Positions 5,673-39,402 are shown, counted from the stretch's first letter. The stretch: DNA of 64,000 nucleotides from a virus (IMGVR_UViG_3300031998_000009:96001-160000), one strand, 5' to 3'. Notes: generated by a model from the letters alone, not told the origin. Translations and numbers: made by a program.

Positions 5673-6050
5673 TCAAAATAATTTCTTCTTGTTAGTAATG
5701 TATCGAGTTATTACTTTTTGTTCATTACTGGATTTAGGTTTCTTTGTTAATGGGTTTCCACTAACGGTCGTTGTTTCTACAATTCTTACATTATGACCAT
5801 TCAAATTATCAAACCTACTACTTTGTGTAATAATAGGTTGATTTAATTTCATAACATGAAAATCAAAATCAACATAACTATCGGAACTGTTTATACATTC
5901 ACCCAACTTAAACCCATCCACATAATGCAAATAAAAAGTGTTTTCTCTATGTATTAATACATATCTTAAATGACTATCTACAACATATAAACAGGTTAGA
6001 TCATATCCTTTTGGAATTCTGGAAACAACATCAGCTAATAGGAAGTCCAT
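5673..6050 (-). CDS. hypothetical protein with C-terminal KKKLF motif
   Basis: ORF in a contiguous operon. Confidence 0.6.
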   Translation of the reverse strand: MDFLLADVVSRIPKGYDLTCLYVVDSHLRYVLIHRENTFYLHYVDGFKLGECINSSDSYVDFDFHVMKLNQPIITQSSRFDNLNGHNVRIVETTTVSGNPLTKKPKSSNEQKVITRYITNKKKLF

Positions 6051-6573
6051 TATTAACTGTTCCTGTAGAAATAAGATCTATAATAGGATATGTTTTAAAT
6101 GGTTCACACCAACCCCATTCATCTTCTATAAAGTTAGGAATATCAGAAACACGATAATCATTTCTGTCATTCTTTATTTGAACGGATGCGAATATAGCAT
6201 AGGGTAGTTGCTTAAGATCTCTATAGTATTTATATACATATCTATATCCAGAAGCATACAGACCCATTAGTATATTTACAACATTATTAGAAAGAATAGT
6301 AGGTGGTGAGATTCTTACGTTAAATCCATAACTGTTTATAATGTTGATCATTTCATCATCTGTGAATTTAGCATCTAGTGGAATTAATGTAGATGCTCCA
6401 ATATTTACAAATCCACTAAAATATTGTGCATTTGTATTATAGTCTGCGATTGTTATTTGTGTACCTGTTAGATCGTTACCTGTATATTCTGTTACTAATA
6501 TACGAAGATTAGTATAATCAGATCTGGCACCTGTTAATTGATTCCAGGTACTTATCTCTAGTATGTTAGCCAA
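6031..6573 (-). CDS. hypothetical protein
   Basis: 180-aa ORF, TTG start with SD. Confidence 0.65.
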   Translation of the reverse strand: MANILEISTWNQLTGARSDYTNLRILVTEYTGNDLTGTQITIADYNTNAQYFSGFVNIGASTLIPLDAKFTDDEMINIINSYGFNVRISPPTILSNNVVNILMGLYASGYRYVYKYYRDLKQLPYAIFASVQIKNDRNDYRVSDIPNFIEDEWGWCEPFKTYPIIDLISTGTVNNGLPIS

Positions 6574-6589
6574 TATAGTTCACTTCCTT

Positions 6590-7744
6590 TTAACTTACTG
6601 CCGAAATTATTTTATCTACAACAGAGTCAGTCTCGTAACCGGCCGTATTTTCTTTTGTTCCTGGATTATGTAATACGTCATACCACAATGTGTTAGATGT
6701 AGAAGCATCTCCAACTTTTTCAAGTATTTTGTCTCTTGTCCATGCAATAGGAGAATCGGATTCCACAACAACACCTTTTTGTTTAGTACCGGCATTATGT
6801 AAAATATCATACCAAACAGTACCACTGGTGCTGCTATTTGAACCTAGTCTTGTAGCAATATTGTTTACGGTCGTAGCAACAGAACTGATAGAGGATCCAC
6901 CGGAACCAACATTACTATTTATAGTGTTGCTATATCCGAACAATGTGGAAGTTCCTGTGTCTCCGGAGGCACCTATTAATGTATCGATTTTCTTCAGTTT
7001 ACCATTTAAGGTTGCTGCAGATGCGGAATCTGTACTTTGACCTATTCTACCTTCTACATCGCTAAATGAATTAGATATAGTAGTTGTTTGGTCTTTAACA
7101 GAGTGAGCTACACTATCATCGCTCGTAGTACTATCACGAAGTGCTTTAGAAATCGTGTAGGTATCATTATCAGCTTTAATGTTAGTAGCAACTTTTTCTG
7201 TGGATGTTTTTAATGCAATAAGTGTACCATCTGTACTATCATTGAAATTCTCATCCATAACGGTTATAGAATCGACAACATCTTCATTATAATCTTTCAA
7301 TGTATTTGTCTTATCTATACTTGTCGCAATAGTATTATCAAAATAAGAAGGAGGACTTCCGGTTGTTTTGGTCATATCATAATGTAACTGCCAGCACAAG
7401 GTATCGATTGATTTAGTTACAGTATCACTAGAAGCGGTTTCCGCTAATGCGGTTTCTAGTTTATCTAACCATAATTTAGCTTCATTACTAATCGTACTCG
7501 CTGTCCATGATTGAACCTTAACACCGTTTGTACCTATTTTATTGCTGTCGCTAAACTTCTTTTCCATTATAGGTGTAGGTATTCCGGAAACATAAATCAT
7601 ATAACCTTTATATTCAATACCCGTTTTTATCTTTGCATAGAAATGGGAATTACCTACTAATAATGAACATTCACTAACTCTTACCACAAGCGGATCAGAG
7701 GCTTTAGCAACATATGGATAATCGGATTGCGGAGTGTAGGGCAT
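6590..7744 (-). CDS. Ser/Thr-rich hypothetical protein with duplicated C-terminal motif (possible virion protein)
   Basis: STSGTVWYDILHNAGTK / STSNTLWYDVLHNPGTK repeat; AAGGAG SD. Confidence 0.7.
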   Translation of the reverse strand: MPYTPQSDYPYVAKASDPLVVRVSECSLLVGNSHFYAKIKTGIEYKGYMIYVSGIPTPIMEKKFSDSNKIGTNGVKVQSWTASTISNEAKLWLDKLETALAETASSDTVTKSIDTLCWQLHYDMTKTTGSPPSYFDNTIATSIDKTNTLKDYNEDVVDSITVMDENFNDSTDGTLIALKTSTEKVATNIKADNDTYTISKALRDSTTSDDSVAHSVKDQTTTISNSFSDVEGRIGQSTDSASAATLNGKLKKIDTLIGASGDTGTSTLFGYSNTINSNVGSGGSSISSVATTVNNIATRLGSNSSTSGTVWYDILHNAGTKQKGVVVESDSPIAWTRDKILEKVGDASTSNTLWYDVLHNPGTKENTAGYETDSVVDKIISAVS

Positions 7745-9903: not shown

Positions 9904-10634
9904 CGTTTACTCTCCTTCTCCTTTGTGAACGATTCGTCAACTATTAACTGCATTTCTAAATCGGCATCTACGTTATCCATTATAGATTCTGTAAAACCTG
10001 CATTTCTAAATTCTTTTTTGAACTGTTCCATAACTATTTCTACATAAGGTTCTATATTCGGTTCTATTCTAAAATAAAATGGCTTATCCTTATCTATCTC
10101 CCTTAACAGGTTTAGACAGACATTTGTGTATAAGGATAGCCACTCTTTTGTACCTTTTTTAAATTTTGTTTTAGACATAGTTTGTTCTATTAGTGATGGT
10201 ATATTATCTAACATTATGTTTCTTTGCATTTTATCGAATTCTTCTGTACAAGACATTGACGAACTTGCACACATTCTTTTTACTTTTTCTCTTAAATGTG
10301 GGTCTGTTTCTGTGTTTATTATTTCATGTTCTATTTTCTTTTGGTTTGGAACATATGATAATTTTATCATTTTTCCTATATAATATATCCAGGCATATAT
10401 TTTTCTTCCATTTAGTACATTCATCCATGTATCTGCCGCTACATCATGACAGACATCTTCTACACCGTTATAACCATAATAGAATTTATTTTGATTTATA
10501 AAAATGTATGCTAATTTTTTAAGTAGTACATACATTTCTTCATTTCTTGGATCATTTTCTGCGAGATAGGTTAATCTTTGTTCTATCTCCAATATTTTCT
10601 TATTTCGTGTTGGTTTGTCTTTCTTGTCTGTCAT
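9900..10634 (-). CDS. putative divergent (late) sigma-factor-like protein
   Basis: LAYIF..KFYYGYNGVEDVCHD...AWIYYIG resembles sigma region 2 / T4 gp55; by eye only. Confidence 0.35.
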   Translation of the reverse strand: MTDKKDKPTRNKKILEIEQRLTYLAENDPRNEEMYVLLKKLAYIFINQNKFYYGYNGVEDVCHDVAADTWMNVLNGRKIYAWIYYIGKMIKLSYVPNQKKIEHEIINTETDPHLREKVKRMCASSSMSCTEEFDKMQRNIMLDNIPSLIEQTMSKTKFKKGTKEWLSLYTNVCLNLLREIDKDKPFYFRIEPNIEPYVEIVMEQFKKEFRNAGFTESIMDNVDADLEMQLIVDESFTKEKESKR

Positions 10635-10806
10635 TTATATTACCCTCTTTATCAAATAGCTGTATGCTCTGTAATCGTTCCTTCTTCCACATCTGATAAC
10701 ATACAGGACCAAAACCGATAGATTTACTATGTTCTCCTCGAAGCAATTTACCACACCTCCGACACAATACTTGTTCCTCTTTTTCCACGTTCTCTTTGGT
10801 ATTCAT
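10600..10806 (-). CDS. DUF6011-like Zn-finger protein
   Basis: CRRCGKLL...S...GFGPVC motif. Confidence 0.7.
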   Translation of the reverse strand: MNTKENVEKEEQVLCRRCGKLLRGEHSKSIGFGPVCYQMWKKERLQSIQLFDKEGNINDRQERQTNTK

Positions 10807-10818: not shown

Positions 10819-11763
10819 TCACATGACGTTTACAATAAGATAATCCACAACATCTTCCGATGTAACAATACCTTGTTTTACGGCTTTTTCATAATATTTT
10901 AAATATTTCATGAATGTAACAAGTTCTTCTATTTTATATTTATTTACATACTCCATAGCTGTTTTGACTTGATAACCTGTTAAACCTGTTGATTCTGTTA
11001 CGTTTTTAGTACCTGCTAGTGTTATTTGAAGTACAGCTTTTACATTGTTATGAAGTAAGGAAACAATCATTAAAGGATTATCACCACGTTTTTTAGAATT
11101 TTCCATAAAAGAGTAGACGTGTTTATAATCTCTTTTCATAATACAATCTACTAATTCATACACTTCACCACTTATTTCAGAATAAAAAACTCCATTCTGT
11201 TTGCATATTCTAAAAGCATCGTTATCTGAAAGTCTTCTAGCTTTCTTTAGATTCTTAACTTTATCAACTTCTAGAAGTATTCTACCATAACTTTTACCAC
11301 ATAATTCGGCAAGGTACAAACAATCCTCTTCGGATATATCTAAATCTTTACGAATGTATTTACACAACATACTTTCAGACAAATATGTGAACTCTACAAT
11401 ATTATCTACAAACTTCTTACTAAATTTAGAACGTGAATCTATATTTCCGTATTTCATGATTACTGTGATATTTTTTGATTTGAGTTGTTTCTCAAGCCCT
11501 TCCCAGCTCTTTTCATCCGTTAAGAATGATTTATCATCACGAATAACATATATAGATTTACTACTCGCAAATAAAGACTTGGTATTCAATGTTTTGATGA
11601 TGTTTTGTATAGACTCAGATTTATAGGTTATTCCATCTATTTTCTCACATAATTTGTTGATGTATATATTCAGTATTTGAAATTCTTCCCCATAAAAGAT
11701 ATACAGATTTCTAAATGATCCTTCAGACATGGATTTCTTTAATTCCATCAAGGTCATTAGCAC
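10819..11763 (-). CDS. holA: DNA polymerase III delta-like clamp loader subunit
   Basis: NLYIFYGEE, KSLF clamp-binding motif, ILLEVDK; adjacent to delta-prime and gamma. Confidence 0.85.
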   Translation of the reverse strand: MLMTLMELKKSMSEGSFRNLYIFYGEEFQILNIYINKLCEKIDGITYKSESIQNIIKTLNTKSLFASSKSIYVIRDDKSFLTDEKSWEGLEKQLKSKNITVIMKYGNIDSRSKFSKKFVDNIVEFTYLSESMLCKYIRKDLDISEEDCLYLAELCGKSYGRILLEVDKVKNLKKARRLSDNDAFRICKQNGVFYSEISGEVYELVDCIMKRDYKHVYSFMENSKKRGDNPLMIVSLLHNNVKAVLQITLAGTKNVTESTGLTGYQVKTAMEYVNKYKIEELVTFMKYLKYYEKAVKQGIVTSEDVVDYLIVNVM

Positions 11764-12617
11764 ACACCTCCGGCAATATCAATATGGGTATTTAGAATCC
11801 AGTTATCAATAATCATTTGTTTACTGCTACCTTTCATCTGTAACTCAGACAGATGTTTACTAGTGTTTTTAATTATTTTACAGAATACTTCTGTATCTTC
11901 CTTGCTGCAATTTTCTAATAGATAATTATTACAACATAACATGATACATCTTAAATACAGTATTGGGTCAAACTTTTCGGATTCTTCATCTTTCCTTAAA
12001 TTTAGAAATGTAGATATTTTGAATTCATTAGCCAGATTAGCAGAACCTATGAATTGAATAAACTTATCTGCTAGATTATATAATTCTGTCACGTCTAGTT
12101 TGGAACAGTTCAGAACATCCTGTGGTGTACTACATATACTCTTTACAATATTTAATTCTTTAGATTTGAACTCTATCTTTTTTTCGTTTATAAAGTTTTG
12201 CAGGTCCGTTTGAGTATATGGATCCAGATAAAATACAGTTCCTCTACTAACAATGGTTCCTAAAACACTATTGATATCCTGAACGGTCATAATGAAATAA
12301 GAATCGTTTGGAGGTTCTTCTGTTACTTTTAGAAGTGCATTTTTAGAAGTAACAGACATACCGTCACAATCAAAAAACATATATAATGTCTTCTCTGTAA
12401 CTGTATATGAATTATATATTACTTCTCTTACACTATCTGCTTTAATATCACAAGGAACAAAGTTTGCCCCTAACTGTTTAGCAGCATAATCAGATATTAA
12501 CTTCTTTCCGGAACCTACATTACCTACAAGAATACTGAATCTAGGAAATCTTCCAGTTTCGACTAGATGGTTTATCTTATCTAGAAGTTTTGTTTGACCA
12601 CAAATATACATATTCAT
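11757..12617 (-). CDS. holB: DNA polymerase III delta-prime-like clamp loader subunit
   Basis: GNVGSGKK, NALLKVTEEPP, TIVSRG. Confidence 0.85.
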   Translation of the reverse strand: MNMYICGQTKLLDKINHLVETGRFPRFSILVGNVGSGKKLISDYAAKQLGANFVPCDIKADSVREVIYNSYTVTEKTLYMFFDCDGMSVTSKNALLKVTEEPPNDSYFIMTVQDINSVLGTIVSRGTVFYLDPYTQTDLQNFINEKKIEFKSKELNIVKSICSTPQDVLNCSKLDVTELYNLADKFIQFIGSANLANEFKISTFLNLRKDEESEKFDPILYLRCIMLCCNNYLLENCSKEDTEVFCKIIKNTSKHLSELQMKGSSKQMIIDNWILNTHIDIAGGVC

Positions 12618-13639
12618 GCCTCCGAACAGAGTAAAATAAATGTGGACTCAATCATTGGTTTAGGTGTAGACTCCCACTTAATGCTATTATTCAGATTGAT
12701 CATTTCATTAAGAAGTGTTATAAAGAACTTAAAATCTGAATTATTATATTTGGACATTCTATTATCATAAAGATTAGGTATTTGAATAAATTCGAAAGAT
12801 CTACAAATATCATATTTACAAAGGTCTAGCACAAATGCATTGTAATTCTTGATAAACTGCTTTAGGTCCATACCATCTCTGTAAATAGTTTCAATTATAT
12901 TTATGACTGTTTTCTTATCCATCTTGCACAATGCGTCTGTAAGATCAAAAAGTGTATTATAGTCAACTGTTCCTAATGCTTTAACAACACTTTCCATGGT
13001 AACATCGTTAGAAAAACCTAATACTTTTTCCATAAGAGTAATAGCGTCACGCATACCGCCATCAGCAAGTTTTGCAATATAGCTAATTGCGTCTTCATTA
13101 TATGTATAGGAACATCCTTCTTTATTTTCCATTTCCAATATATACTTCAGACGTTTTGTAATACCGCTGTGAGATATTTTCTTAAAATCATATCTTTGTA
13201 CTCTTGATAGAATTGTATTAGGTATTTTTTGAGGATCTGTTGTAGCAAAAATAAATATGCTTGTAGGTGTAGGTTCTTCAGTTGTCTTGAGTAAACATTG
13301 CCATGAGGTATTGCTCAGCGAGTGGGCCTCATCAATGATATACACCCGATAGTCACAACCAATAGGCTTAAACTTCGAATCATCTATTAGTTTTCTAACA
13401 TCCTCTACACCACTATGAGAAGCTGCGTCTAGCTCTACAATACCGTTTCCATTATTATTGATATACTTTGCAAATAACCTAGCGTCAGTCGTTTTGCCAG
13501 TGCCGGCAGGTCCACAAAACAAATAAGAATTTCGAATTGATTTAGTTTCAATCTGATTCTTCAATATTGCTTTAATAACATCCTGTTCTACTACTTCTTC
13601 AAATGTGGCAGGTCTATACTTCACAGCTAATGTTGGCAT
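12614..13639 (-). CDS. dnaX: DNA polymerase III gamma-like clamp loader ATPase
   Basis: LAVKYRP, GPAGTGKTT, ELDAAS, IIDEAH, LLKTTEEP, TILSR, GGMRDA. Confidence 0.95.
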   Translation of the reverse strand: MPTLAVKYRPATFEEVVEQDVIKAILKNQIETKSIRNSYLFCGPAGTGKTTDARLFAKYINNNGNGIVELDAASHSGVEDVRKLIDDSKFKPIGCDYRVYIIDEAHSLSNTSWQCLLKTTEEPTPTSIFIFATTDPQKIPNTILSRVQRYDFKKISHSGITKRLKYILEMENKEGCSYTYNEDAISYIAKLADGGMRDAITLMEKVLGFSNDVTMESVVKALGTVDYNTLFDLTDALCKMDKKTVINIIETIYRDGMDLKQFIKNYNAFVLDLCKYDICRSFEFIQIPNLYDNRMSKYNNSDFKFFITLLNEMINLNNSIKWESTPKPMIESTFILLCSEA

Positions 13640-15241: not shown

Positions 15242-15317
15242 TGGTGTCCCGGAACAGAATCGAACTGTTGACACGGGGATTTTCAGTCCCCTGCTCTACC
15301 ATCTGAGCTACCGAGAC
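15242..15317 (-). tRNA. tRNA-Phe(GAA)
   Basis: Cloverleaf, loop CTGAAAA, encoded CCA. Confidence 0.95.
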
Positions 15318-15323
15318 AAATAA

Positions 15324-15407
15324 CGGAAGGAGAGGGACTCGAACCCTCGCACCTTACGGTCTAGCGGTTTAGCAAACCGTCCCCTTCACCAGCTTGAGCA
15401 TCCTTCC
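15324..15407 (-). tRNA. tRNA-Ser(GCT)
   Basis: Cloverleaf with long variable arm, loop TTGCTAA. Confidence 0.93.
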
Positions 15408-15411
15408 TAAA

Positions 15412-15483
15412 AGTGGATGAAGGGAATTGAACCCTCATTACCTGCTTGGAAGGCAGGAGTCTTAACCATTCGACGACATCCAC
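15412..15483 (-). tRNA. tRNA-Gly(TCC)
   Basis: Cloverleaf, loop CTTCCAA. Confidence 0.93.
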
Positions 15484-15487
15484 AAAG

Positions 15488-15561
15488 TCCTCACAGTAGG
15501 ATTCGAACCTGCGACCTACCGCTTAGAAGGCGGTTGCTCTATCCAACTGAGCTATGTGAGG
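15488..15561 (-). tRNA. tRNA-Arg(TCT)
   Basis: Cloverleaf, loop CTTCTAA. Confidence 0.93.
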
Positions 15562-15564
15562 AGA

Positions 15565-15972
15565 TTAGCTACAATTATGACAAGTGTAATGACTACCATC
15601 GATAAATAATTGTCCAGACCAATTTGTATGAACATTAGGTAAATATAATCTAAATGTATCGATTATCATTTCTTTTATTATAGATGTATTTATGCACTTA
15701 TCCATATAAACATTTGATTCGTATATAACTGTTCCATTCACTTGTTTATGGGGTAGTACCTCAACTCTTCCTCTCGGAAAATAGTCATAAGGAACAGGTT
15801 TACCATCTACGATATATTTGTTTTTTAATGTTTCCCAAGATTTCTTGTGAAGTAAGTTTGTCATAAAATATGGATCATTAGGATCAACTGGATCTGTTAA
15901 TGCTACTAGTTCGTTATTTATAACCCAAAATATTCCTTCACAAAGAACTTGTAGACTTTCATAAACTATCAT
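15565..15972 (-). CDS. hypothetical protein within tRNA array
   Basis: 135-aa ORF, GIFW...H...W...YDYFPRGRV...HYTC. Confidence 0.7.
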   Translation of the reverse strand: MIVYESLQVLCEGIFWVINNELVALTDPVDPNDPYFMTNLLHKKSWETLKNKYIVDGKPVPYDYFPRGRVEVLPHKQVNGTVIYESNVYMDKCINTSIIKEMIIDTFRLYLPNVHTNWSGQLFIDGSHYTCHNCS

Positions 15973-16052
15973 TATTTATCATCCTTACCCAGAATACAGC
16001 AAGAATATAGAATTAATGTTATGAATACAGCTACAAATAAAATAACTTTCAT
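15972..16052 (-). CDS. 26-aa single-pass membrane peptide MKVILFVAVFITLILYSCCILGKDDK
   Basis: AAAGGAGG SD; TAATG coupling to the next gene; below the ORF-track cutoff. Confidence 0.6.
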   Translation of the reverse strand: MKVILFVAVFITLILYSCCILGKDDK

Positions 16053-16080
16053 ATATTATTCCTCCTTTATGGAGAAGAAA

Positions 16081-16164
16081 TGGAAGAGATTGGATTCGAA
16101 CCAATGAAGCACATAGGCAACAGATTTACAGTCTGCCCCCTTTGACCAACTCGGGAACTCTTCC
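16081..16164 (-). tRNA. tRNA-Tyr(GTA)
   Basis: Cloverleaf with variable arm, loop CTGTAAA. Confidence 0.93.
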
Positions 16165-16176
16165 AAATTATATTTA

Positions 16177-16311
16177 ATGCCGGGTGAGTAGTTTCAACCT
16201 CACGCATTCCCGTCCAGAGTTACATAACCTTTTTAACGGAGTTGGTCCTCCGAATGTTCTGTCGTAGGGACTGTATTTTCTTTTCGACTTTTAATGCTTG
16301 TCTACCGACAA
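16177..16311 (-). ncRNA. unknown ~135-nt RNA with tRNA-like ends
   Basis: UGUCGG/CCGGCA terminal stem, GCAUU/AAUGC stem, GUGAG-GUUGAAACUA-CUCAC T-arm-like hairpin. Confidence 0.5.
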
Positions 16312-16320
16312 TAAATATAA

Positions 16321-16395
16321 TGACCCTAACGGGATTTGAACCCATGTTTTCAGAATGAAAATCTGACGTCCTAGACCAGACTAGACGATAGGGCC
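16321..16395 (-). tRNA. tRNA-Glu(TTC)
   Basis: Cloverleaf, loop TTTTCAT. Confidence 0.92.
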
Positions 16396-16397
16396 GG

Positions 16398-16472
16398 TGG
16401 TTGTCGTGGTTGGATTTGAACCAACGAATAACGGCTTCAAAGACCGCTGCCTTTCCACTTGGCGACACGACA
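16398..16472 (-). tRNA. tRNA-Gln(TTG)
   Basis: Cloverleaf, U1-A72, loop CTTTGAA, encoded CCA. Confidence 0.92.
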
Positions 16473-16480
16473 ATCACGAA

Positions 16481-16562
16481 TACTACCTGTGGGACTTGAA
16501 CCCACATTCCTTTCGGAACTGGTTTTTGAGACCAGTGCGTATGCCAATTCCGCCAAGGTAGT
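16481..16562 (-). tRNA. tRNA-Leu(CAA)
   Basis: Cloverleaf with variable arm, loop CTCAAAA. Confidence 0.93.
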
Positions 16563-28811: not shown

Positions 28812-30057
28812 AATCTTTTTCCTTATCCTTAAAATCTAAACGCTCTTCATACTCAATAGGATCCACCAAACCGTTTCTAAAGAACGCTTTCTGTCTCATA
28901 AAACAAGGACCACAATGCCCACAGGCTTTATCCCCATTTCTGTAACAAGACCACGTATATTCAAAAGGTGCCTTATATTTAAGACCAAAGGGAATAATTT
29001 CATGCTTCATTAAGTTACCCACAGGAGTTCTAATCTCCACATACTTTCCATTTTGAACAGCTCCATACAAACAACTATTAAAATCCTTAATAAACTGTTC
29101 TTCATTATCAGGATATGCCCCAGACTCTTCTAAATTTGTCCCTAAATAAATGTAACTAAAATTATTTGCCTCCGCATAACCTACGGCCATTGACATCATA
29201 ATAAGGTTACGGGCAGGTACCCATTCATGGGCATATTCACTTCCAGAAACGCTCTCGGAAATGTTTTCCTTACCGTCCAAAATTGTACTTGCATGAGCCA
29301 TAAAATGTAAATCTAAATCCATTACATATAAAGAGCAATTACCATATGTGTGATTAAGAGATTCCTGAATCTTTTTAATTCGAATCAATTCGGGTGTCTC
29401 CGCTAGGCACCCATAATTATAATGCAATAAAGTCACTTTCTTATGTGTGGCACAAGCGTATGCTGCAACGGCGGTGCTATCTAAACCTGCTGAAGCAATA
29501 ACAATGGCGCTATCTTGAACATCCCTTTTTATACTTATAATCTCCCTTGTTTCAGAATCCATTATAGAATAAGGGGGAACTCTTTTAACATCCCCAATAG
29601 AAACCAAGTGATGTGCATAAGAACTAAAATAAAAATTACCATCCTTATCGTAAGAATAAAAAATGGGCTTATAATTACAGGCGAGGTAGAAATTTCCATC
29701 CGGTTTTAAAATTCCGATGGCATAGGCCCCTACCACCTTATACAAACTATCCCTTAGAGAATAAATATTTGTAAAGTCCAGAACTTTACTAAGTACATAA
29801 CTATCAATCATCCCATCTGGATTTCCTAATTCTCTATCATTACTAATAGTTCCATTATGAACTATTTTATAGTCCGTTCCGAAAGGTTGATTAAATTCGG
29901 CATTTTCAACCTCCGTCGTAGGAACTGCCCTATGGTTACAAATCCAGCTCCCTTTTCTATAAAAAACATTACTATAGTCTCTACCCCGATCTAAGGACGT
30001 TTGAAATATAGAAAGAAATTTTTCATTCAGGGAGGTTCCACCACAAATCGTACACAT
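28801..30057 (-). CDS. queC: Gat-QueC fusion (class II glutamine amidotransferase + 7-cyano-7-deazaguanine synthase)
   Basis: N-terminal MC (Ntn Cys), HRA.P, HNGTISN; SAGLDS, VPARN, YPD, TWSCY...CGHCGPC. Confidence 0.93.
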   Translation of the reverse strand: MCTICGGTSLNEKFLSIFQTSLDRGRDYSNVFYRKGSWICNHRAVPTTEVENAEFNQPFGTDYKIVHNGTISNDRELGNPDGMIDSYVLSKVLDFTNIYSLRDSLYKVVGAYAIGILKPDGNFYLACNYKPIFYSYDKDGNFYFSSYAHHLVSIGDVKRVPPYSIMDSETREIISIKRDVQDSAIVIASAGLDSTAVAAYACATHKKVTLLHYNYGCLAETPELIRIKKIQESLNHTYGNCSLYVMDLDLHFMAHASTILDGKENISESVSGSEYAHEWVPARNLIMMSMAVGYAEANNFSYIYLGTNLEESGAYPDNEEQFIKDFNSCLYGAVQNGKYVEIRTPVGNLMKHEIIPFGLKYKAPFEYTWSCYRNGDKACGHCGPCFMRQKAFFRNGLVDPIEYEERLDFKDKEKDYAK

Positions 30058-30069: not shown

Positions 30070-30954
30070 TCAGAATAAAGATTTTTTTAAACCTTTTAAT
30101 TTACGTTCATGGTTATTTGCAAATTGTTGAAGGTACATAATATTAACAAGACATCTTATTTTATAATCTTCCATACATTGTTGAACGGTAAAACCTAGAG
30201 ATTTTAAATAAATTTGAACCTGTTCCTGTTCATCCTTTTTCATATTAGCATAATTTTTTGCCAGATAATCTTGCTTCTCACTAATATTAATGACTCCCCA
30301 AGGTGACATTATACCCCCGTTAGCACTTGTCATAATCCACGCTGTGGAGTCCGCACTTTTAAAAGGATAAGACTTCAAAAGAGGTTTAGAAGTCATACCA
30401 AAAGCGTGAACTTTAATGTCGGGTCTCACTTTCTGTATAACTTTATAACAGGACTGAAAAAAATTATCTAAAATACTCTTTGTACTACCCACCAATCCTC
30501 CTAGCGCAATATAATCAATATCATCATCCTGTAGGTACTTATATAAATATTGAATATTGTCACCTTGGTGATATGTAGGAAGTAATTTATGCTTATCTTT
30601 ACAATGCTCCTTTAAATATAAATAGTTCTCATAACTTTTTTTATCTGAATCTGGAACACCACTACCACCAATAATATCTAAACTCGCAAATATATCAATG
30701 TACTCGATGATATTATTTATATATTGAATATAGTTATCTATATCGATAGTAACACCTTGAGTAAAAGCTGTGTAGGCACCGCAATCTATAAATAATTTAT
30801 TTTTAGCATTTTGGGTAGACTTTTTAAAGTCTACCCAGGATCTAATAATAGACTTGTCGCTGTAATAGGAAAGAAGTCTATTACAACCATTATTCATCAT
30901 ATAATCTTCGGCGAGTTTATTTTGGCTTCCGGCAAAATAAATATCAAATGCCAA
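30070..30954 (-). CDS. dpdA: DpdA-like TGT-fold 7-deazaguanine DNA transglycosylase
   Basis: FIDCGAY, LDII, PTYH, ALGGLV, VHAFG, SADSTAW; context between polA and que genes. Confidence 0.8.
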   Translation of the reverse strand: MAFDIYFAGSQNKLAEDYMMNNGCNRLLSYYSDKSIIRSWVDFKKSTQNAKNKLFIDCGAYTAFTQGVTIDIDNYIQYINNIIEYIDIFASLDIIGGSGVPDSDKKSYENYLYLKEHCKDKHKLLPTYHQGDNIQYLYKYLQDDDIDYIALGGLVGSTKSILDNFFQSCYKVIQKVRPDIKVHAFGMTSKPLLKSYPFKSADSTAWIMTSANGGIMSPWGVINISEKQDYLAKNYANMKKDEQEQVQIYLKSLGFTVQQCMEDYKIRCLVNIMYLQQFANNHERKLKGLKKSLF

Positions 30955-31018: not shown

Positions 31019-33367
31019 TTACAATGTATTCACATCAATTGATTCTCCGTACCAACTATAAAACAATTCAACATCACAAGTGAGTGGAACACAGAGATCA
31101 CGTCCTGCATTTATCATACATTGACTCATGAGTTCGGCACACCGTTTAGCATTTTCTACAGGACACTCTGCTATAATTTCATCATGTACGGGAATTAACA
31201 TTCTAAAACCTAGTTCTTTTAGCTCCTTATGGTTAAACAATTCTATTTGTGCTAACTTTGTCAAATCAGCACTCGAGCCTTGAACACGACTGTTTACAAC
31301 CTCTCGTTTAGCCTTAGCGATATGTCCAGTGTTATCTTTAATGTTAATACCGGATTGACGAATCTTTTCCTTTATAAGTTCACGTTCTTTATAATTACAT
31401 CTAAGAAGTCTATTAGTGAGACGTCTAACTTCTTCTTCTGGAACTTCTGTAGAGTAATTTGTCTCTTCATCTGAAAGTGGATCAAAATCAGGAGTCATAC
31501 CATTCTTATATGTGAACTCATAATATGGAAGTTGCATGGCAGGCAACTGTCGACGTCGTCCCCAAACAGTAGTAACATATCCGTATTCTCTTGCCATGTC
31601 CTCTGATTCTTCCAAGAACATAGCGAGACCTGGGAACTTTGCTAGAACCTTATCGTAAATTGCCTGTGCTTCTTTACGATTTTTATGAAGTTGTTCACCT
31701 ATAGATGCTATACCTCTTCCATAAAGAATGCCAAGAACAACTGGTTTTGCCGTAGCTCTTCTTTCTTTACCTTCTTTACTGTATGTTCCATCAGGTCGTT
31801 TCTCACAACATTCTTCATATGGAACATTAAAAATGATAGAAGCTATTTCAGAGTAAACATCCTTACCGTCCTTATAAGCCTGAATCATCTTTTCATCTTG
31901 ACTTAAATGAGCAGTAACACGAACTTCTTGTCCGGAATAGTCACAAGATAACATAATGTATCCTGGAGAGGCTGTAAACAACTGTCTTACATCATGTCCT
32001 GAATCTATTTCTGTTCCGTCTTTTAATTTAAATGAACGGGAAGGGATATTCTGTAAATTCGGCGAGTCACTACTAACACGACCTGTTTCAGCACCATACT
32101 GATTGAATTTACAGTGAATTCGTTTATCCGGATATTTGGATGCTTCTTCTGGCATCTTATCAATGTAAGTAGAAACGACTTTTTTGAATTTTCTAACGTC
32201 TGATATAGCATTGCACAAAGGGTGATCTAGTTGTTCTAGTATTTCCTTGTCGGTCCCTCTAGGTTTTTCCTTATCTGGAGATTTCAAACCTAATATATCA
32301 TACAAAACAATAGCAAGTTGCTGAGTGCTTCCTAGATTAATTGGATCAGATAACTTACATCCAGGATGACTTCTTCTATACTCGTCTATTTGTCCCATAT
32401 AATCCTCTAGAACATTATCTAGATTCTGCTGCATTGTATCTGTGAGTTTATGATATTTCTCCTGTATCTTTTTGGCATGCTCATAATCTATTGCTGTACC
32501 TAAATTCTCCATAGCAATAAAGGTCGGCATAGATTTCATTTCGATGTTAAAAAATACATTAGACACACCTTGCATATTATGTGATTCATAATAAATACCA
32601 TTTGGTTCCAGATACTGTGCTTGAAAATCAGCTAATTCATCTGTATAAATAGCATCATGAGCCGCGTATAAATAGGCAACATCAATAGGAATTAGGTTGA
32701 ACGGTATTCCTTCGAACAACTTTCCAAAAGTTAATACTTCACCTTTTCCATCGTTACAATATTTATTACGAAGGTCTTTCAGGCTCTTTTCACCTTTTTT
32801 CTCGTCACTATTAAGACACATAGCAGCGATATAACAATCCCAATAAGGAGTAAACCACACACCTACGTGATTTCCAAGAATTTTAATATCAAAGGGTGCG
32901 TTGAACCAATATGTTTTTACGTCGGCATCAACTAATCTTTGGAACTGTTCTCTTATAAAATCAACAGGTAGCTGATCATTACATTTTACATTGGTTATAT
33001 AGCTAACATGATTAATAGGAATATAAGCAGGTTTAAGACCTTCTGTATGAATACAGATACCTACAATATCATCAAGTATTGTATTTAATCCTGTAGTTTC
33101 TGTATCAATACTTATCCTATTATTTTCAATAGCTTTGTCAATGTAATCTATAAGTGATTGTTCTTCCCGTATAAGAAGTAAAGAATCCTCTTTACCTTCA
33201 AATTTAGACTTTACAAAAGAACAAGCTGCCTGAATTCTGTCAATGAGTTTTCCAGAACCCTTTAATTTAATATTATTATCTTGGATAGGTTGTGTGACTT
33301 TTTTAAGTAGTTGCTGGTCCTTTTTGGTAGTAGCACGGCTGCTAGGTAAATTAAAGAATCCAGCCAT
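31019..33367 (-). CDS. polA: family A DNA polymerase with 3'-5' exonuclease
   Basis: IDTETTG, YAAHDA, TGRVSS.PNLQNIP, DYSGQEVR, AKPVVLGILYG, QGSSAD, VHDE. Confidence 0.96.
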   Translation of the reverse strand: MAGFFNLPSSRATTKKDQQLLKKVTQPIQDNNIKLKGSGKLIDRIQAACSFVKSKFEGKEDSLLLIREEQSLIDYIDKAIENNRISIDTETTGLNTILDDIVGICIHTEGLKPAYIPINHVSYITNVKCNDQLPVDFIREQFQRLVDADVKTYWFNAPFDIKILGNHVGVWFTPYWDCYIAAMCLNSDEKKGEKSLKDLRNKYCNDGKGEVLTFGKLFEGIPFNLIPIDVAYLYAAHDAIYTDELADFQAQYLEPNGIYYESHNMQGVSNVFFNIEMKSMPTFIAMENLGTAIDYEHAKKIQEKYHKLTDTMQQNLDNVLEDYMGQIDEYRRSHPGCKLSDPINLGSTQQLAIVLYDILGLKSPDKEKPRGTDKEILEQLDHPLCNAISDVRKFKKVVSTYIDKMPEEASKYPDKRIHCKFNQYGAETGRVSSDSPNLQNIPSRSFKLKDGTEIDSGHDVRQLFTASPGYIMLSCDYSGQEVRVTAHLSQDEKMIQAYKDGKDVYSEIASIIFNVPYEECCEKRPDGTYSKEGKERRATAKPVVLGILYGRGIASIGEQLHKNRKEAQAIYDKVLAKFPGLAMFLEESEDMAREYGYVTTVWGRRRQLPAMQLPYYEFTYKNGMTPDFDPLSDEETNYSTEVPEEEVRRLTNRLLRCNYKERELIKEKIRQSGINIKDNTGHIAKAKREVVNSRVQGSSADLTKLAQIELFNHKELKELGFRMLIPVHDEIIAECPVENAKRCAELMSQCMINAGRDLCVPLTCDVELFYSWYGESIDVNTL

Positions 33368-33373: not shown

Positions 33374-34051
33374 TTACACCATATTAGGTCTTGTACCACG
33401 TCTTACCGTTGGTTCTTCTTCGGAATTTCTAGAACCTCTACGATACACACCGGCATCTTCAGACGTAGACTCTTCAGAAGAATTATTAAGAGTTCTGTTC
33501 TTAATAAAATCCTTCATTGTATCAAAATCCATATCCTGAACATAGACACCGTCCGGACTAGGAATCATATCGAAATCGTCGAGTGTTGTGTCGTCACTAC
33601 TTTCGAAAGTAATTTCGTAGCGTGTATCAGAGTCACCTGCTACACCACGTCTAGTAATAGTGAAAATGTTAGCACAGAACGGTTCGCCTTTTTGAACCAT
33701 AAGTGGATAGATACACTTCTTAAAGAAAGCTGTGCTTCTATCCCAGAGTGCTACTTCAGATTCATCTACCTTATAAATTGGAATCCATGTTTTTTTCTCT
33801 GTCTTTCTATCCTCTAGAATAGGAGAAGAACAAAGTGGACACATTTCCTGTGGGTCGTTATAACCTCTGAGGCAGTTAATACTTGTAAATTTCCCATCCT
33901 TTGTTCTTACTCTGTGACAACAATAACCGTTAAAGTCACGAATACTTTCGTACATAAAACGGACATTACAACTGTCTCCGTCATCTTTCAGACCAAAGAA
34001 CCCTGCCGACTGTGACACATAATTATCAATGTCATCAAATCCAAATTTCAT
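33374..34051 (-). CDS. putative single-stranded DNA-binding protein
   Basis: FFGLKDDGD..VRF, H...C...CPLC, ITRRG.....TRY, acidic C-terminal region; between primase and polymerase. Confidence 0.65.
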   Translation of the reverse strand: MKFGFDDIDNYVSQSAGFFGLKDDGDSCNVRFMYESIRDFNGYCCHRVRTKDGKFTSINCLRGYNDPQEMCPLCSSPILEDRKTEKKTWIPIYKVDESEVALWDRSTAFFKKCIYPLMVQKGEPFCANIFTITRRGVAGDSDTRYEITFESSDDTTLDDFDMIPSPDGVYVQDMDFDTMKDFIKNRTLNNSSEESTSEDAGVYRRGSRNSEEEPTVRRGTRPNMV

Positions 34052-34380: not shown

Positions 34381-35403
34381 TTACAAAATAGTTTCTTTTA
34401 GATTTTCTATTTCTTCCCATGTGCATTCGTTTATATCCTTACGACCTTCTGGAAGAATATACTCTGTCAACATTCTTGTTTTTAACTTTCGTTTTATCTT
34501 TTCTCTAGCATCCATACCGGCTTTATCCGAGTCGGTTGCTATTATGAATTTTCGTATTGGAAGTTTTAATAACTGTCCAAACTGATAGTCAGTACCTAAT
34601 CCATTAAGAGCAACTGCATATTTCTTATGTGTCCATAAAGTTAGACAGTCTATAATAGATTCACAAATACACAGTTCTTTTGGATATTCAGGTAGTTTAG
34701 ACAATTCATATAGTCCGTATACGGGTTTTAATACACCTTGAGGATAGTGGAACATTTTAGTTTCTACACTTCTTCTGGCAATAAAAAGTGTACCACCTGT
34801 TTCATCTCGAACTGGAAAAGTTATACATTTACAATGATATTTCTTTCCTGCTTTAGACGTTAATACGAAATCTTTGTCATAACCTACATCAAACAATTCT
34901 ATTATTTCATCAGTTAGTTTTCTTGTGTACATATATGGATGAATATATCTATAGGAGTCTAATTCCTCTTCGGAAACATAATTTATAGTAGTTTGATTAT
35001 TCTTTTTTCCTCTAGATGTATCTAGTACTAATTCAGGTCTATTTTCATACTCCACAGTCAGGAAGTTTTTTCGTAACCACTCTGAACCGAATATACCAAA
35101 GTCGTCTCTATCAAAAACATAACTTATCATTTCTTCGAGAGAGCATACCATACCACAAGTGAAGCAATGAACAGTACCGGCTTTGATTAATTTGCCACCT
35201 TGATAAATATCCTTTTTAGTTATACCACAAGAAGGTTTTAACTCCTGTCCACCTTTATGAAATGGACAGCTAAATTGTATATGGTCCGTGGTAGGTATAA
35301 AAGTATGAAAATAATGTTTACCATTAAGTTCAAGTTGATTTCTTAATTCCTGCAATATAACAAGTTCGTCCTCCAATATTGGACGACCCATTACTGTAAA
35401 CAT
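34381..35403 (-). CDS. dnaG: DNA primase (CHC2 Zn finger + TOPRIM)
   Basis: CPFH...HCFTCG, ITFPV, CESIID, TDSDKAG, KDINE. Confidence 0.92.
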   Translation of the reverse strand: MFTVMGRPILEDELVILQELRNQLELNGKHYFHTFIPTTDHIQFSCPFHKGGQELKPSCGITKKDIYQGGKLIKAGTVHCFTCGMVCSLEEMISYVFDRDDFGIFGSEWLRKNFLTVEYENRPELVLDTSRGKKNNQTTINYVSEEELDSYRYIHPYMYTRKLTDEIIELFDVGYDKDFVLTSKAGKKYHCKCITFPVRDETGGTLFIARRSVETKMFHYPQGVLKPVYGLYELSKLPEYPKELCICESIIDCLTLWTHKKYAVALNGLGTDYQFGQLLKLPIRKFIIATDSDKAGMDAREKIKRKLKTRMLTEYILPEGRKDINECTWEEIENLKETIL

Positions 35404-35695: not shown

Positions 35696-37024
35696 TTAGA
35701 ACGGTGTTTGTGCCCCACCACGTCTTGGCATTATGGGTTGTTTATTTTCTACCTCACGTTGTCTTGTATTTTCTGTACGTCTATATCTGGATTCAGTTTC
35801 TTCTGTATCTGTAAATTCATCTGGATTTGCATTATAAGAAAACTCACCTGTATCGATATGCCAATCATAGGAAAGTTTAATACCTACCTTACCATTTCTA
35901 TTCTTTGGTATCTCTATATTAAGTTTATTATTTCTCTGTCGGATAGAAAGCACCTTTGTAGCATTCTGAGCTATGCCGTCAGAATCTCTAATACTTTCAA
36001 GAGCTGGAGCACTTCCATCTTCATTTATACCTTCTCTGTTAGCCTGAACGACTACAAGAATAGGTATTTTTAACTCACAACTCAAACTCATTAAATCCTC
36101 ACTAATGTTAGTGAGTGATGTAGTTTTGTTATCACCCTTTTTGTATCTTTCATCTGTGAGATAGGTAATACCATCTATACCTAATACGTCTAAATTGTTT
36201 TTGATACAGAACTTTCTTAATTTAGATACAGTTATCTTTTTATTGAAATCAATAGGTGTCGCTACGATAAACGAGTTTTTAGCGTTCTCTTCAAGATCCG
36301 TTATGTATTGTTCATAGTCACCATCAAGGTCTCTACCTGTATACAGATTAAAATTGGAGAAGTGTTCATTCAATGTATCAAATCTATAACCTATCTGGTC
36401 ATCGCTCATCTCCGGAGATATATAACCTATATTACCCCCGACTTTCCAGTTATGCTCTAATATCTTACATAATATCCACGATTTACCTTGGTTTGTTCTA
36501 GCTACAATAACAACATATTCTTCTCCAGGAGCTAGTCCACCTATAATCTCGTCTAATTCCTGGAAACCTGTTGTTCTCATCCAAGGTTCTGTGGAATTTT
36601 TCTTTTTAAGATATACCTCGTAACGCTTTCTAGCATTTTTTATAATATCTACACCTACATCACCACCTATCACTTCCTGTGATTTAAGCTGTGCCTTTAA
36701 ATATTCTAAAGCCGCTTCTGAATTATCCTTTATTAGTTCAGCTGCTTTGTTAAGAATAGGTACTAATGTACTATATAGATATTCTTCACCTATTTGGTCT
36801 ACTAAATAATCATCACTTTCGTGTACTTCTGTGATTTCAAATTCATTAAAATGATCAAGAAATGTAAGAGTATCCGGAACATTACCGTATCTCTTATAAT
36901 GATCCATAATAAATGTAAATTCAGCAGAATAAGGTGCAAAGTGTTCCGCAGTAAGATCGTTTTCAAAGACGATATCTACGGATTTAGATTTTAGTATCTT
37001 ATTAAGTATCTGAATCTGTACCAT
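35696..37024 (-). CDS. dnaB: DnaB-like replicative helicase
   Basis: TGFQELD, ARTNQGKS, SPEM, IDGITYL, QANRE, DSDGIAQ, KNRNG. Confidence 0.92.
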   Translation of the reverse strand: MVQIQILNKILKSKSVDIVFENDLTAEHFAPYSAEFTFIMDHYKRYGNVPDTLTFLDHFNEFEITEVHESDDYLVDQIGEEYLYSTLVPILNKAAELIKDNSEAALEYLKAQLKSQEVIGGDVGVDIIKNARKRYEVYLKKKNSTEPWMRTTGFQELDEIIGGLAPGEEYVVIVARTNQGKSWILCKILEHNWKVGGNIGYISPEMSDDQIGYRFDTLNEHFSNFNLYTGRDLDGDYEQYITDLEENAKNSFIVATPIDFNKKITVSKLRKFCIKNNLDVLGIDGITYLTDERYKKGDNKTTSLTNISEDLMSLSCELKIPILVVVQANREGINEDGSAPALESIRDSDGIAQNATKVLSIRQRNNKLNIEIPKNRNGKVGIKLSYDWHIDTGEFSYNANPDEFTDTEETESRYRRTENTRQREVENKQPIMPRRGGAQTPF

Positions 37025-37754
37025 CGTCAATGACCTCACTATTCATAAAATTAGTGTAGGTATTCTTATACCTCATATCCATTCCAGTAATATGTAAACA
37101 ATCTGATCCTTCACACGCTCTGGAATATATTCGTGCATCTAACCTTTCTAGTTGTTCCGGTGATAGGTTACTCGTAAATATATTACACTTTTTGGCAAAC
37201 ATTCTCTCATTTATATAAGAGTATAACCATTGTGATTCGTATTTTGTTGGGTCCGTTTGTCCTATATCATCCCATATTACAATATCACATTTTTGAATTG
37301 TGTGTAATAGTTCTAAATAATTTTCTGACTTATATGTCATATACAATTTAGCATCTCTTAAAAACGATGGAACATTTATATACAATCCTCTAGGTGTGAA
37401 ATCGTTTACCTCTGCTATTTGTGCAAAGTAGTTACTCATAATTTTTACAGCCCACGATGTTTTACCTACACCTGTTTCACCATACAGATATAAATTAAAT
37501 CCTCTCTTTACAAAGAACTCAACATCACCTATTATAGTCTGTAATACTTCTGCTACATCAGGTTCCAGAGAATCTTTTTCCAAATGAATGTATTTCCACA
37601 TACTTTTAGGTAAATTACTTAATTGAAATAAATAGTCTGTTTGTGTGAATCGTTTACAAGTATGAACACATTCAGGAGTTTCCCATTTATCACAGAAGTT
37701 CTTATACCAACATTTGCTAGTATCTTCTAGGTGAGTGTACAGATCATCCCTCAC
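37002..37754 (-). CDS. dnaC: DnaC/IstB-like helicase loader ATPase
   Basis: GETGVGKT, WDDIG, INER, FTSN, RIYSR. Confidence 0.88.
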   Translation of the reverse strand: MRDDLYTHLEDTSKCWYKNFCDKWETPECVHTCKRFTQTDYLFQLSNLPKSMWKYIHLEKDSLEPDVAEVLQTIIGDVEFFVKRGFNLYLYGETGVGKTSWAVKIMSNYFAQIAEVNDFTPRGLYINVPSFLRDAKLYMTYKSENYLELLHTIQKCDIVIWDDIGQTDPTKYESQWLYSYINERMFAKKCNIFTSNLSPEQLERLDARIYSRACEGSDCLHITGMDMRYKNTYTNFMNSEVIDDGTDSDT

Positions 37755-37767
37755 TACAAATCACCTC

Positions 37768-39402
37768 TTAAAATGTTATGTTTTTTAATTTCTCGTCATT
37801 TGGGTGCAAATTCTTTGCTTTCATAACTTTGGCTTTTCTAGATCTATCCAAACTGGATGCTTTGTGCTCACGGGTTTCTAACTTCTGTTTCAACTGTGCC
37901 GTTTCAACATAATCTTCCGTAGCAAGTTTATTAGAGTTATTCTGTATAGCAAGTTTTACTTTCGTTACCTTTTCGGAATCATCCAAACAGAACAATCGTA
38001 GATTATCTAGTATGATGCAGAAGTTAGTATATGTCATAGAACTTCCAGCTTCTGTCTCTGTTGCATAAGTAATCAGAGCTTCTTCCAATCCTTCACAAAG
38101 TTGATAATAACCTTCTTTTATGAATGTATGAATCTTTTCGATTTTTTTATCTGTATCAATAGCATTACTTGATTGTGCTTGTTGAATTGTTTTACCGTAT
38201 AGATTAGTTCCGTTCGGATAAGCTAATGCAGCATAACCGTTAGCATAAGAAAGTTCAACACTCTCTATCTTTTGTTGTAATTCTGGATAAATAGTAGAAA
38301 GACGTTTTAATGCTAATGTGAACTGTTTAAGTGTAAAACTTTTCCCTTTCTGTGTGTCTGTAACATAAGAGTATAACAGGTCTTTAAGTTCTGAACTTCC
38401 TTCGCACTCATCCTCTATATATCTGTCAATAGCATCTAGTTTCTGTCTCATATCAACTTCTGTCTTATCCTGTATATAAAGGGAACGATAATTATTCATG
38501 AAGGTAAATTTAACACCTTCGATCATTCGTTCCACTGTTCTTCCATATTTATATAGATTCTCTAGCTGCTGTTCCCATTGAGCAGGAGTATAACTTCTAC
38601 CATTATCTGTATCAAGGAAGTTATTGATAACTTTCAATAACTCGTCATTTCCACCAACTCTCATATAAACGAAGTTGTGTGTCATCTCACGTTTTGCTAC
38701 ATCCCATTCGTTATGAAGAGCTTTCTTAGACTTTCGTTTAGGCTCATCGAACAACTTCTTTTGTGTTGTTTCCGAGGTTGTGTCGTTATTTGATTTCTGT
38801 ATATAATCCTTTTCTGGATTCTTTTTTGGTTGTTTTTCCTTTTGTATGTGTTCCAGCATATCTGTTATAGACGAACTGTCTATCTTTGTATTATTGTGTA
38901 TGAGCTTTGCTAGTTCACCTACTGTAATACATATTTCTATATCCTTGTTATCGTGGTATTCCATTAAGTTATTAAGATAAGTATCAATAGTTTCTCCGTC
39001 TTCTGGGAACCGTTGCTTTAACAAATAACCATACGAATCCAGAAAATTCTTATAATCGGAACTGTTAGCTTGTTCACATAATTGGGTGATATATTCTATG
39101 TTGACTTGATAACTGTTCTTTTTAATTATTGGGTTGTTTGGATTTTGTTTGCATTCCTTTATTATATAGTTTTTACAAACTAAATTATCTACATTTCGTG
39201 ATATTGTTTGTCTAGCATTTCCAAACCACATCTCCAATTCGGACATTGTGGAATAACATTTATGCACGTTATCAAATGTTTGTGTGAATATATAAGCAAA
39301 TAAGAACAGTTCATTACCACTTAATTTTAGAATAGTTCTCATCCAATACCAAATAATTATATTCGGTGCTGTTTGAGTATCGTTGAGTCTCAAAGAAATC
39401 AC
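37768..39402 (-). CDS. putative replication initiator: N-terminal wHTH plus three tandem helical repeats
   Basis: LKLSGNEL..FAYI...RQTISR.V..L..KNYI; directly upstream of DnaC/DnaB. Confidence 0.65.
   Translation of the reverse strand: MISLRLNDTQTAPNIIIWYWMRTILKLSGNELFLFAYIFTQTFDNVHKCYSTMSELEMWFGNARQTISRNVDNLVCKNYIIKECKQNPNNPIIKKNSYQVNIEYITQLCEQANSSDYKNFLDSYGYLLKQRFPEDGETIDTYLNNLMEYHDNKDIEICITVGELAKLIHNNTKIDSSSITDMLEHIQKEKQPKKNPEKDYIQKSNNDTTSETTQKKLFDEPKRKSKKALHNEWDVAKREMTHNFVYMRVGGNDELLKVINNFLDTDNGRSYTPAQWEQQLENLYKYGRTVERMIEGVKFTFMNNYRSLYIQDKTEVDMRQKLDAIDRYIEDECEGSSELKDLLYSYVTDTQKGKSFTLKQFTLALKRLSTIYPELQQKIESVELSYANGYAALAYPNGTNLYGKTIQQAQSSNAIDTDKKIEKIHTFIKEGYYQLCEGLEEALITYATETEAGSSMTYTNFCIILDNLRLFCLDDSEKVTKVKLAIQNNSNKLATEDYVETAQLKQKLETREHKASSLDRSRKAKVMKAKNLHPNDEKLKNITF

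Follow-up and report, generated by a model that had tools for sequence, protein, structure and literature searches.

A conserved C-terminal Leu-Phe tail makes phage DpdA a predicted client of the phage-encoded sliding clamp

The stretch IMGVR_UViG_3300031998_000009:96001-160000 (64,000 nucleotides, referred to as the window) is taken, at bases 96001-160000, from the 198.5-kb IMG/VR record of an uncultured phage, which is estimated to be 86% complete. It encodes a DNA 7-deazaguanine transglycosylase, DpdA, together with a β-type sliding clamp and a clamp loader. Here the analysis was centred on the C-terminus of DpdA, which ends LKKSLF, and on similar peptides in six other proteins of the window that an initial annotation had read as a network of clamp-binding motifs. 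DpdA is predicted to be a client of the phage clamp, a reading that we consider probable and for which the comparative evidence argues well and the modelling weakly. The features on which it depends are listed below, with positions counted from the first base of the window.

30070-30954, minus strand: dpdA, DNA 7-deazaguanine transglycosylase of the tRNA-guanine transglycosylase (TGT) superfamily, 294 amino acids (aa) (phrog_887, E=1.7e-50)
30073-30111, minus strand: DpdA tail, residues 282-294 (including RKLKGLKKSLF), beyond the last helix, which ends at residue 281, with the proposed clamp-docking LF at its end
24709-25797, minus strand: phage β-type sliding clamp (DnaN-like), 362 aa (PF00712, 24.6 bits against a cut-off of 24.4)

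In an AlphaFold2 model based on a 28-sequence alignment, DpdA adopted a TGT-like barrel with a predicted local distance difference test (pLDDT) value of 91. The last helix spans residues 264-281 and the pLDDT of the residues beyond it drops to 63 and then to 43, which suggests that the tail is a linear motif on a flexible arm lying outside the fold. A Foldseek search with the model gave tRNA-guanine transglycosylases (TGT, arcTGT) as best matches (E about 3e-8, TM 0.6) and tblastn matched the DpdAs of phages Flasso, Dp-1 and 9g, while no Pfam or NCBIfam match was found at E 0.01. Asp57, Asp93 and Asp202 were invariant in the 28-sequence alignment. FolE, QueE, QueD and Gat-QueC are encoded directly downstream of dpdA, ahead of the clamp gene, and a pathway of this Gat-QueC kind suggests preQ0 or G+ as the base inserted by DpdA; the glutamine amidotransferase-QueC fusion is one of three amidotransferase types tied to dG+ synthesis (PMC6884629). 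The dpdA stop codon is TGA and is followed by the ribosome-binding site and ATG of gat-queC, so that the LF is truly terminal; an extension of DpdA by means of a TAG-reading suppressor tRNA was ruled out on the same grounds.

The closest cultured relatives of this DpdA are those of Bacillus phage Flasso (39% identity) and of the pneumococcal phages Dp-1 and MS1 (34-35%), which end SQGKLF, RQRRLF and KQNRLF, respectively. In all three phages dnaN lies within two genes after dpdA and is followed by a Cas4/RecB exonuclease gene. Scanning IMG/VR with patterns taken from the N-terminus and interior of DpdA, and hence without bias towards the tail, recovered 80 loci with 77 complete DpdA open reading frames (ORFs) sharing 27-91% identity. 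LF formed the end of DpdA in 62 of these 77, compared with a background of 32 LF ends among 3536 ORFs (0.9%), and no conserved terminal LF was detected in about 20 other gene families of the same loci. A clamp ORF was present in the flank of all 55 LF-tailed loci whose downstream sequence exceeded about 1.6 kb, the other seven running off their contigs. In the 28-sequence alignment (33-91% identity) L293 was invariant and F294 was kept in at least 90% of the sequences, with the residues preceding them varying freely (KKSLF, QKRLF, RKKLF, SNRLF, RQELF and others). An exhaustive profile search identified 6744 members of the DpdA family, and tails were tallied in the best 150 representatives of clusters formed at 50% identity: 89 ended in LF, 16 in LW and 14 in L[LI], nine carried LF within the last eight residues and the remaining 22 included several truncated sequences.

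A similar pattern was found in the 9g-type subfamily. Fourteen cultured phages of this type (9g, PSTCR4, Vid5, R7M, MiCath, HD01, VogelGryff, PaP002, a Stenotrophomonas phage, Me-ZS1, RHph_N17, Ssp-JY38, R31B and BcepGomr) have DpdAs in which an invariant LF forms the C-terminus or lies beside it (L314 and F315 in the subfamily alignment), mostly as QELF, and most of them have an annotated clamp gene 0-2 genes downstream of dpdA. Among 80 IMG/VR loci of the 9g type, L[FYW] stood at the end or no more than eight residues from it in 78/78 complete DpdAs, 62 of which end exactly in LF, again mostly QELF, and a clamp ORF lay directly downstream in all 78. Both the conservation of the terminal motif among clamp-encoding phages (62/77, 78/78 for L[FYW], and 89/150) and its co-occurrence with a phage clamp gene (all 55 loci of the first scan with enough flank and all 78 of the 9g type), on which the proposal in the initial annotation hinged, were thus borne out. 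The 9g-type polymerase encoded just after the clamp (loci L104-L183) begins with a conserved MRxDxxG[FL]FW, and in the order dpdA-clamp-polymerase terminal LF-type peptides flank the clamp gene on both sides.

As negative controls, the DpdAs of mycobacteriophages Rosebush, Allegro and Bipper end GASAQ or KENGQ, without an LF tail, and no dnaN match was found in the complete genomes of these phages. One locus of the IMG/VR set (L083) likewise had neither the DpdA tail nor a clamp. Scans of IMG/VR with Rosebush-type and phi47:1-type DpdAs returned 2 and 0 loci, respectively, so that the set of negative controls is small. Overall, the LF tail predicted a clamp in every checkable case and the clamp predicted the tail in roughly nine cases out of ten.

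The match of the clamp to TIGR00663 (E=8.7e-12, 44.7 bits) is far below the equivalog cut-off of 137.65, which points to a divergent phage β clamp rather than a DnaN equivalog. A profile of 22 clamp homologs matched 26 solved bacterial β clamps (best E=1.1e-21, profile positions 1-339). The complex was predicted using two clamp copies and DpdA residues 245-294, with three controls, giving a score of 0.36 against 0.01 for the best control, rated by the tool as "weak support"; the runs agreed in at least 66% of contacts and the partner pLDDT was at least 55. Of 80 solved complexes, 58 attained the mark set for this prediction, as did 2 of 110 mismatched pairs; at scores of 0.60 or lower it was attained by only seven of the 80 and by both of the mismatches that passed. 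Clamp-peptide complexes are already in the PDB, so the pass obtained for clamp and DpdA may reflect likeness to these. The proposal that DpdA rides the phage clamp stands as regards the conserved LF, the disordered tail, its absence from the sampled clamp-less mycobacteriophages and the matching peptides of polymerase and ligase described below, the binding itself being predicted at the score given.

Direct reading of the window proteins confirmed all seven peptides of the initial annotation, as well as the clamp and the clamp loader (10819-13639) that it had attributed to the phage itself. Across the 69 window proteins, [KQ]xLF at any position was seen seven times against 7.2 expected when each protein was shuffled, terminal LF twice against 0.27 (P=0.027) and K[KS]LF, a pattern picked after the fact, four times against 0.75. 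The list as a whole is not enriched, and with the loose count at chance level the network is not arguable from window numbers alone. The force of the list lies in terminal position and in conservation among relatives, which is true of some members and fails for others. Compared with the network as first drawn, DpdA, PolA, delta and a 125-aa ORF held up, the exonuclease LF was not conserved, and the motifs of the initiator-like and DUF6011 proteins were kept in a single relative. From these comparisons PolA appears to be a real member, delta, the 125-aa ORF and an additional protein, the DNA ligase, are probable ones and the exonuclease is unsupported. The candidate partners other than DpdA, with the remaining loader subunits, are as follows.

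31019-33367, minus strand: family A DNA polymerase (PolA) with 3'-5' exonuclease domain, 782 aa (PF00476, E=1.4e-89; PF01612, E=4.9e-14)
33353-33367, minus strand: MAGFF at the PolA N-terminus, a candidate clamp-binding motif, represented by a conserved short hydrophobic peptide in relatives
10819-11763, minus strand: clamp-loader delta, 314 aa (PF21694, E=1e-12; weak match to Bacillus subtilis delta, 3zh9_B)
11569-11583, minus strand: TKSLF (aa 61-65 of delta), likely to be the plug that opens the clamp, from the resemblance of SLFAS to HolA
11757-12617, minus strand: clamp-loader delta' (PF13177, PF12169 and PF22608, given jointly for delta' and gamma/tau)
12614-13639, minus strand: clamp-loader gamma/tau (same joint matches)
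5673-6050, minus strand: 125-aa ORF ending NKKKLF, without a family match
G000:C1:16927-18969, minus strand, outside the window (L197): NAD-dependent DNA ligase, 680 aa, with a KPKKKSLF tail appended after its BRCT domain
G000:C1:80422-81180, minus strand, outside the window (L198): N6/N4 DNA methyltransferase (methylase), PF01555, 252 aa, ending TQRRKLF

A phage with its own clamp and loader must couple its own polymerase to them, and PolA therefore provides an internal positive control. Across about 42 related loci, the PolA N-terminus read MAQKGLFG, MALFNVP, MSGLFNLP or MAGFFNL in 28 and MALSFARP in nine, the rest showing FNF, LW or LI. In delta, NTKSLFASSK resembles QAMSLFASRQ of Escherichia coli HolA (NC_000913.3), SLFAS being similarly placed relative to the N-terminus at aa 63-67 and aa 72-76, respectively. 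The homologs of delta in phages keep a hydrophobic pair at the plug position (SLV, SIV, GLV or SLL). By this resemblance SLFAS is the likely clamp-opening plug of the phage protein, L73-F74 being the plug with which E. coli delta opens the clamp. Pfam and PDB matches to the phage delta cover its C-terminal domain only; a MAFFT alignment of delta to HolA offset the two SLFAS motifs, and a hidden Markov model built from phage deltas gave no match to HolA.

In a census covering the entire 198.5-kb genome, only four ORFs ended in L[FW], each with a basic run before the motif, namely DpdA (LKKSLF), the NAD-dependent DNA ligase (KPKKKSLF), the N6/N4 DNA methylase (TQRRKLF) and the 125-aa ORF (NKKKLF). 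DNA ligase is a known β-clamp partner in bacteria, and the ligase of this phage, with the same kind of tail as DpdA, is likely to be a clamp partner as well. In the relative G015, with proteins 40-91% identical to those of this genome, the ligase (56% identical) ends KPKKSGKLF and the homolog of the 125-aa ORF (40% identical) ends KTKLF, and the same census there returned DpdA, the ligase (SGKLF) and the small ORF (KTKLF) again but not the methylase. The methylase is a second DNA-modifying enzyme with a DpdA-like tail in the present genome; TQRRKLF was rejected as a conserved motif, since G015 does not keep it, the gene there appearing split and having a different end. No function for the 125-aa ORF emerged from family searches, the ESM Atlas or a search for homologs. 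As a separate observation, the SSB-like protein, the primase and the DnaB-like helicase (33374-34051, 34381-35403 and 35696-37039, all minus strand) have homologs in related loci whose last residue is frequently Phe or Tyr, preceded by an acidic or basic run (RGGRF, EEIF, EDVF, EEEY), and these ends are probably other docking tails, not of the LF type.

In the mechanism proposed here, the catalytic TGT-like barrel of DpdA ends at residue 281 and is followed by a flexible, basic 13-residue tail whose terminal Leu-Phe would dock in the hydrophobic partner cleft of the clamp, much as bacterial clamp partners do with their QL(S/D)LF peptides. Clamps would be placed on phage replication forks by the phage loader (gamma/tau, delta and delta'), PolA would hold the clamp by its N-terminal GLF/FF peptide, and the ligase and DpdA would do so by their C-terminal basic-xLF tails. 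Such a tether would keep DpdA on fresh duplex DNA and let it scan along, so that guanine would be swapped for 7-deazaguanine during copying. Base exchange would in this way be coupled to replication, and its processivity or selectivity may gain.

The consensus of bacterial clamp-binding peptides is QL(S/D)LF (PMC9690074). The DpdA tail is like these peptides in being a short Leu-Phe-ending sequence in a terminal or flexible position, conserved amid variable surroundings, in occurring with a DnaN-type clamp and loader and in being shared by several DNA enzymes of one genome. It is unlike them in having basic residues before LF, often with no Gln or, as in QELF, with the Gln one position closer, and in its clamp, which is phage-encoded and very divergent. 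Carriers of the bacterial motif include Pol II, Pol IV, delta, MutS/MutL, Hda and LigA, whereas the carrier here is a DNA base-exchange enzyme, which as far as searched is not among the described clients.

The protein resembles the phage DpdAs of 9g, CAjan, Dp-1 and iggy in its phrog_887 assignment, its TGT fold and the same FolE/QueD/QueE/QueC gene set; the DNA of Dp-1, whose DpdA is 34% identical to the present one, carries dPreQ1 (PMC6884629). The C-terminal motif and the dpdA-clamp linkage are not discussed in the three main phage DpdA papers (PMC6884629, PMC10516641, PMC10484667), from which the words "clamp", "processivity" and "replisome" are absent. The Dp-1 phage-host interactome paper makes no mention of Gp7 (DpdA) or Gp10 (DnaN), and full-text literature searches found no paper linking DpdA to a clamp. 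Bacterial DpdA, which uses the same transglycosylase chemistry on DNA, needs the DpdB ATPase as a helper to insert preQ0 (PMC10164549). No DpdB was found among the genes annotated in the window, which leaves room for the sliding clamp as a helper, and the clamp may serve DpdA in place of DpdB. A further parallel is DNMT1-PCNA, which couples DNA methylation to replication in eukaryotes (PMC9690074) and in which a DNA-modifying enzyme is likewise tethered to a sliding clamp by a short motif and marks new DNA as it is made. The two cases differ in clamp family, motif (a PIP box in DNMT1), chemistry and domain of life, so that the analogy is one of mechanism and not of kinship.

Several observations weigh against docking of DpdA on the phage clamp. 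The KKSLF tail departs from the canonical QL(S/D)LF and lacks Gln; the 9g type has Q at position -4, and Gln is also present in the tails of Flasso (QGKLF), Dp-1 (QRRLF) and MS1 (QNRLF). Cellulophaga phage phi47:1 has a clamp and yet a short DpdA without an LF tail, the DpdAs P0050 and P0068 lie near clamps without the motif, and in a clade of 110-166-kb phages DpdA ends RRIGL beside a very divergent clamp and a clamp loader. In this clade (L066-L075) the ends read LPKSARRIGL, or RRIGNR in two cases, and the sequence downstream in L075 (9986-13146) encodes a 349-aa, very divergent DnaN-like ORF and a clamp loader. The IGL ending is reminiscent of QLVLGL, with which E. coli Pol IV ends. As only a few large clades supply the co-occurrence counts, these represent few independent gains or losses, and for the weak clamp-DpdA complex score no interface was reported by the tool. 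A comparable case calls for caution: an interaction between the T4 α-glucosyltransferase and gp45, an older in vitro claim, was not found in vitro or in vivo (bioRxiv 10.64898/2025.12.06.692756). There too a phage hypermodification enzyme had been proposed to act on a phage clamp, although gp45 is a clamp of a different type, and such claims need direct tests. Finally, when 9g DpdA and Gat-QueC acted in E. coli in the absence of a phage clamp, 9-18% of the G in a plasmid was modified (PMC6884629), so that the phage clamp is not strictly needed and the host clamp could stand in for it.

This last result, obtained in uninfected cells where only the host clamp is available, also lends itself to another explanation, namely that the DpdA tail docks on the host β clamp instead of, or besides, the phage clamp, the latter serving mainly the phage polymerase. 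The likeness of the motif to bacterial clamp-binding peptides (PMC9690074) and the report that MuC of phage Mu uses the host clamp (PMC12867686) agree with such a use of the host protein. We nevertheless consider it improbable, as LF-tailed dpdA genes are almost always separated from a phage clamp gene by a few genes at most and the DpdAs of the clamp-less mycobacteriophages have no tail even though their hosts have clamps. About as improbable, in our estimate, is a role for the basic-xLF tail away from any clamp, whether in binding another replisome or pathway protein (SSB, polymerase or Gat-QueC), as a DNA-contacting arm or in DpdA oligomerization, TGT enzymes being dimers. A tail rich in Lys and Arg would suit DNA contact, and the weak complex prediction and the exceptions in which a clamp is present and the motif absent fit this explanation. 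On the other hand, it is the terminal hydrophobic dipeptide that is invariant and not the basic residues, the same kind of terminal peptide is found on PolA and ligase, both expected clamp partners, and a disordered tail is unlike a fixed dimer interface.

Docking of DpdA on the phage clamp remains the favoured reading, from which a wider and more doubtful proposal can be derived. Phage clamps might act as hubs of hypermodification to which DpdA in most clamp-encoding phages, and here perhaps the N6/N4 methylase too, would be tethered by LF, with the clamp replacing DpdB and the exchange being processive, coupled to replication and biased to DNA loaded with the phage clamp. Such a hub would help to explain the high occupancy of base exchange on phage DNA. 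That the tether also explains how phage DNA is discriminated from host DNA is speculation, and it is weakened by the plasmid modification that 9g DpdA and Gat-QueC achieved in E. coli with no phage clamp present.

The three remaining peptides of the initial annotation lie in the following proteins.

38749-38766, minus strand: TQKKLF, aa 213-218, in the linker of the initiator-like protein at 37768-39402 (phrog_678, E=1.7e-4)
10654-10671, minus strand: QSIQLF, aa 46-51, in the DUF6011 protein at 10600-10806 (PF19474, E=4.6e-9)
24686-24706, minus strand: MAQKALF, N-terminus of the Cas4-like exonuclease at 23717-24706 (PF01930, phrog_1706)

In the one relative aligned for each, the KLF of the initiator-like protein was kept in an indel-rich linker (51% identity) and the LFD of the DUF6011 protein within a variable stretch, which is weakly suggestive. 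The exonuclease peptide was rejected as an LF motif, as homologs have K, I, L, S, R or T in place of the F. These homologs (L002-L084) keep an N-terminal M..SLxN[VLI]x[RK][LM][IV] element, which may be a docking element of a different type, and in most relatives the exonuclease gene follows the clamp gene. There is about an even chance that these minor motifs are compositional accidents of a K/L/F-rich proteome in a genome of 33% G+C. The loose count at its shuffled expectation, the lack of conservation of the exonuclease F and the absence of the methylase tail from G015 are in line with chance, whereas the retention of KLF and LFD at about 50% identity within variable stretches speaks against it, from a single comparison.

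The region holding the motifs is one large replication and DNA-modification module. Besides the polymerase, DpdA, clamp and loader described above, its genes for initiation and unwinding encode the initiator-like protein, a DnaC-like loader, a DnaB-like helicase, a primase and SSB, and those for recombination and repair encode the Cas4-like exonuclease, two resolvase-like proteins and a UvsX-like recombinase. The genes for 7-deazaguanine synthesis that separate dpdA from the clamp gene (25813-30057, minus strand) were assigned from NCBIfam and PHROG matches.

25813-26397, minus strand: FolE
26760-27458, minus strand: QueE
27462-27920, minus strand: QueD
27939-28418, minus strand: deaminase-like protein, inside the 7-deazaguanine cluster
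28801-30057, minus strand: Gat-QueC

A 126-aa phosphoribosyltransferase-like protein (28431-28811, minus strand) is encoded in the same cluster beside the deaminase-like gene. The window has a G+C content of 33% and nearly all its genes are on the minus strand; a 10-kb part of the window gave no megablast match among cultured phages, and hence no close cultured relative. An array of 16 tRNA genes (15242-17895, minus strand) contains a tRNA with anticodon CUA (17009-17081), an amber suppressor labelled tRNA-Pyl by ARAGORN. TAG is the rarest stop codon, used by 3 of the 69 window ORFs, including one spurious ORF within the tRNA array, and together with the CUA tRNA this could mean that TAG is read through or recoded in a part of the genome.

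In the course of a single infection cycle, phage DpdAs have to modify a large fraction of the guanines. The predicted clamp-docking tail is conserved across hundreds of phage DpdAs, including those of 9g, the CAjan-like Seuratviruses and Dp-1, and provides a hypothesis that is testable by mutation, CRISPR having already been used to edit dpdA in CAjan (PMC6884629). If true, a base-exchange enzyme would join the clients of sliding clamps as a bacterial-virus counterpart of DNMT1-PCNA. Clamp docking would then also be relevant to the engineering of phages and plasmids with modified, restriction-resistant DNA.

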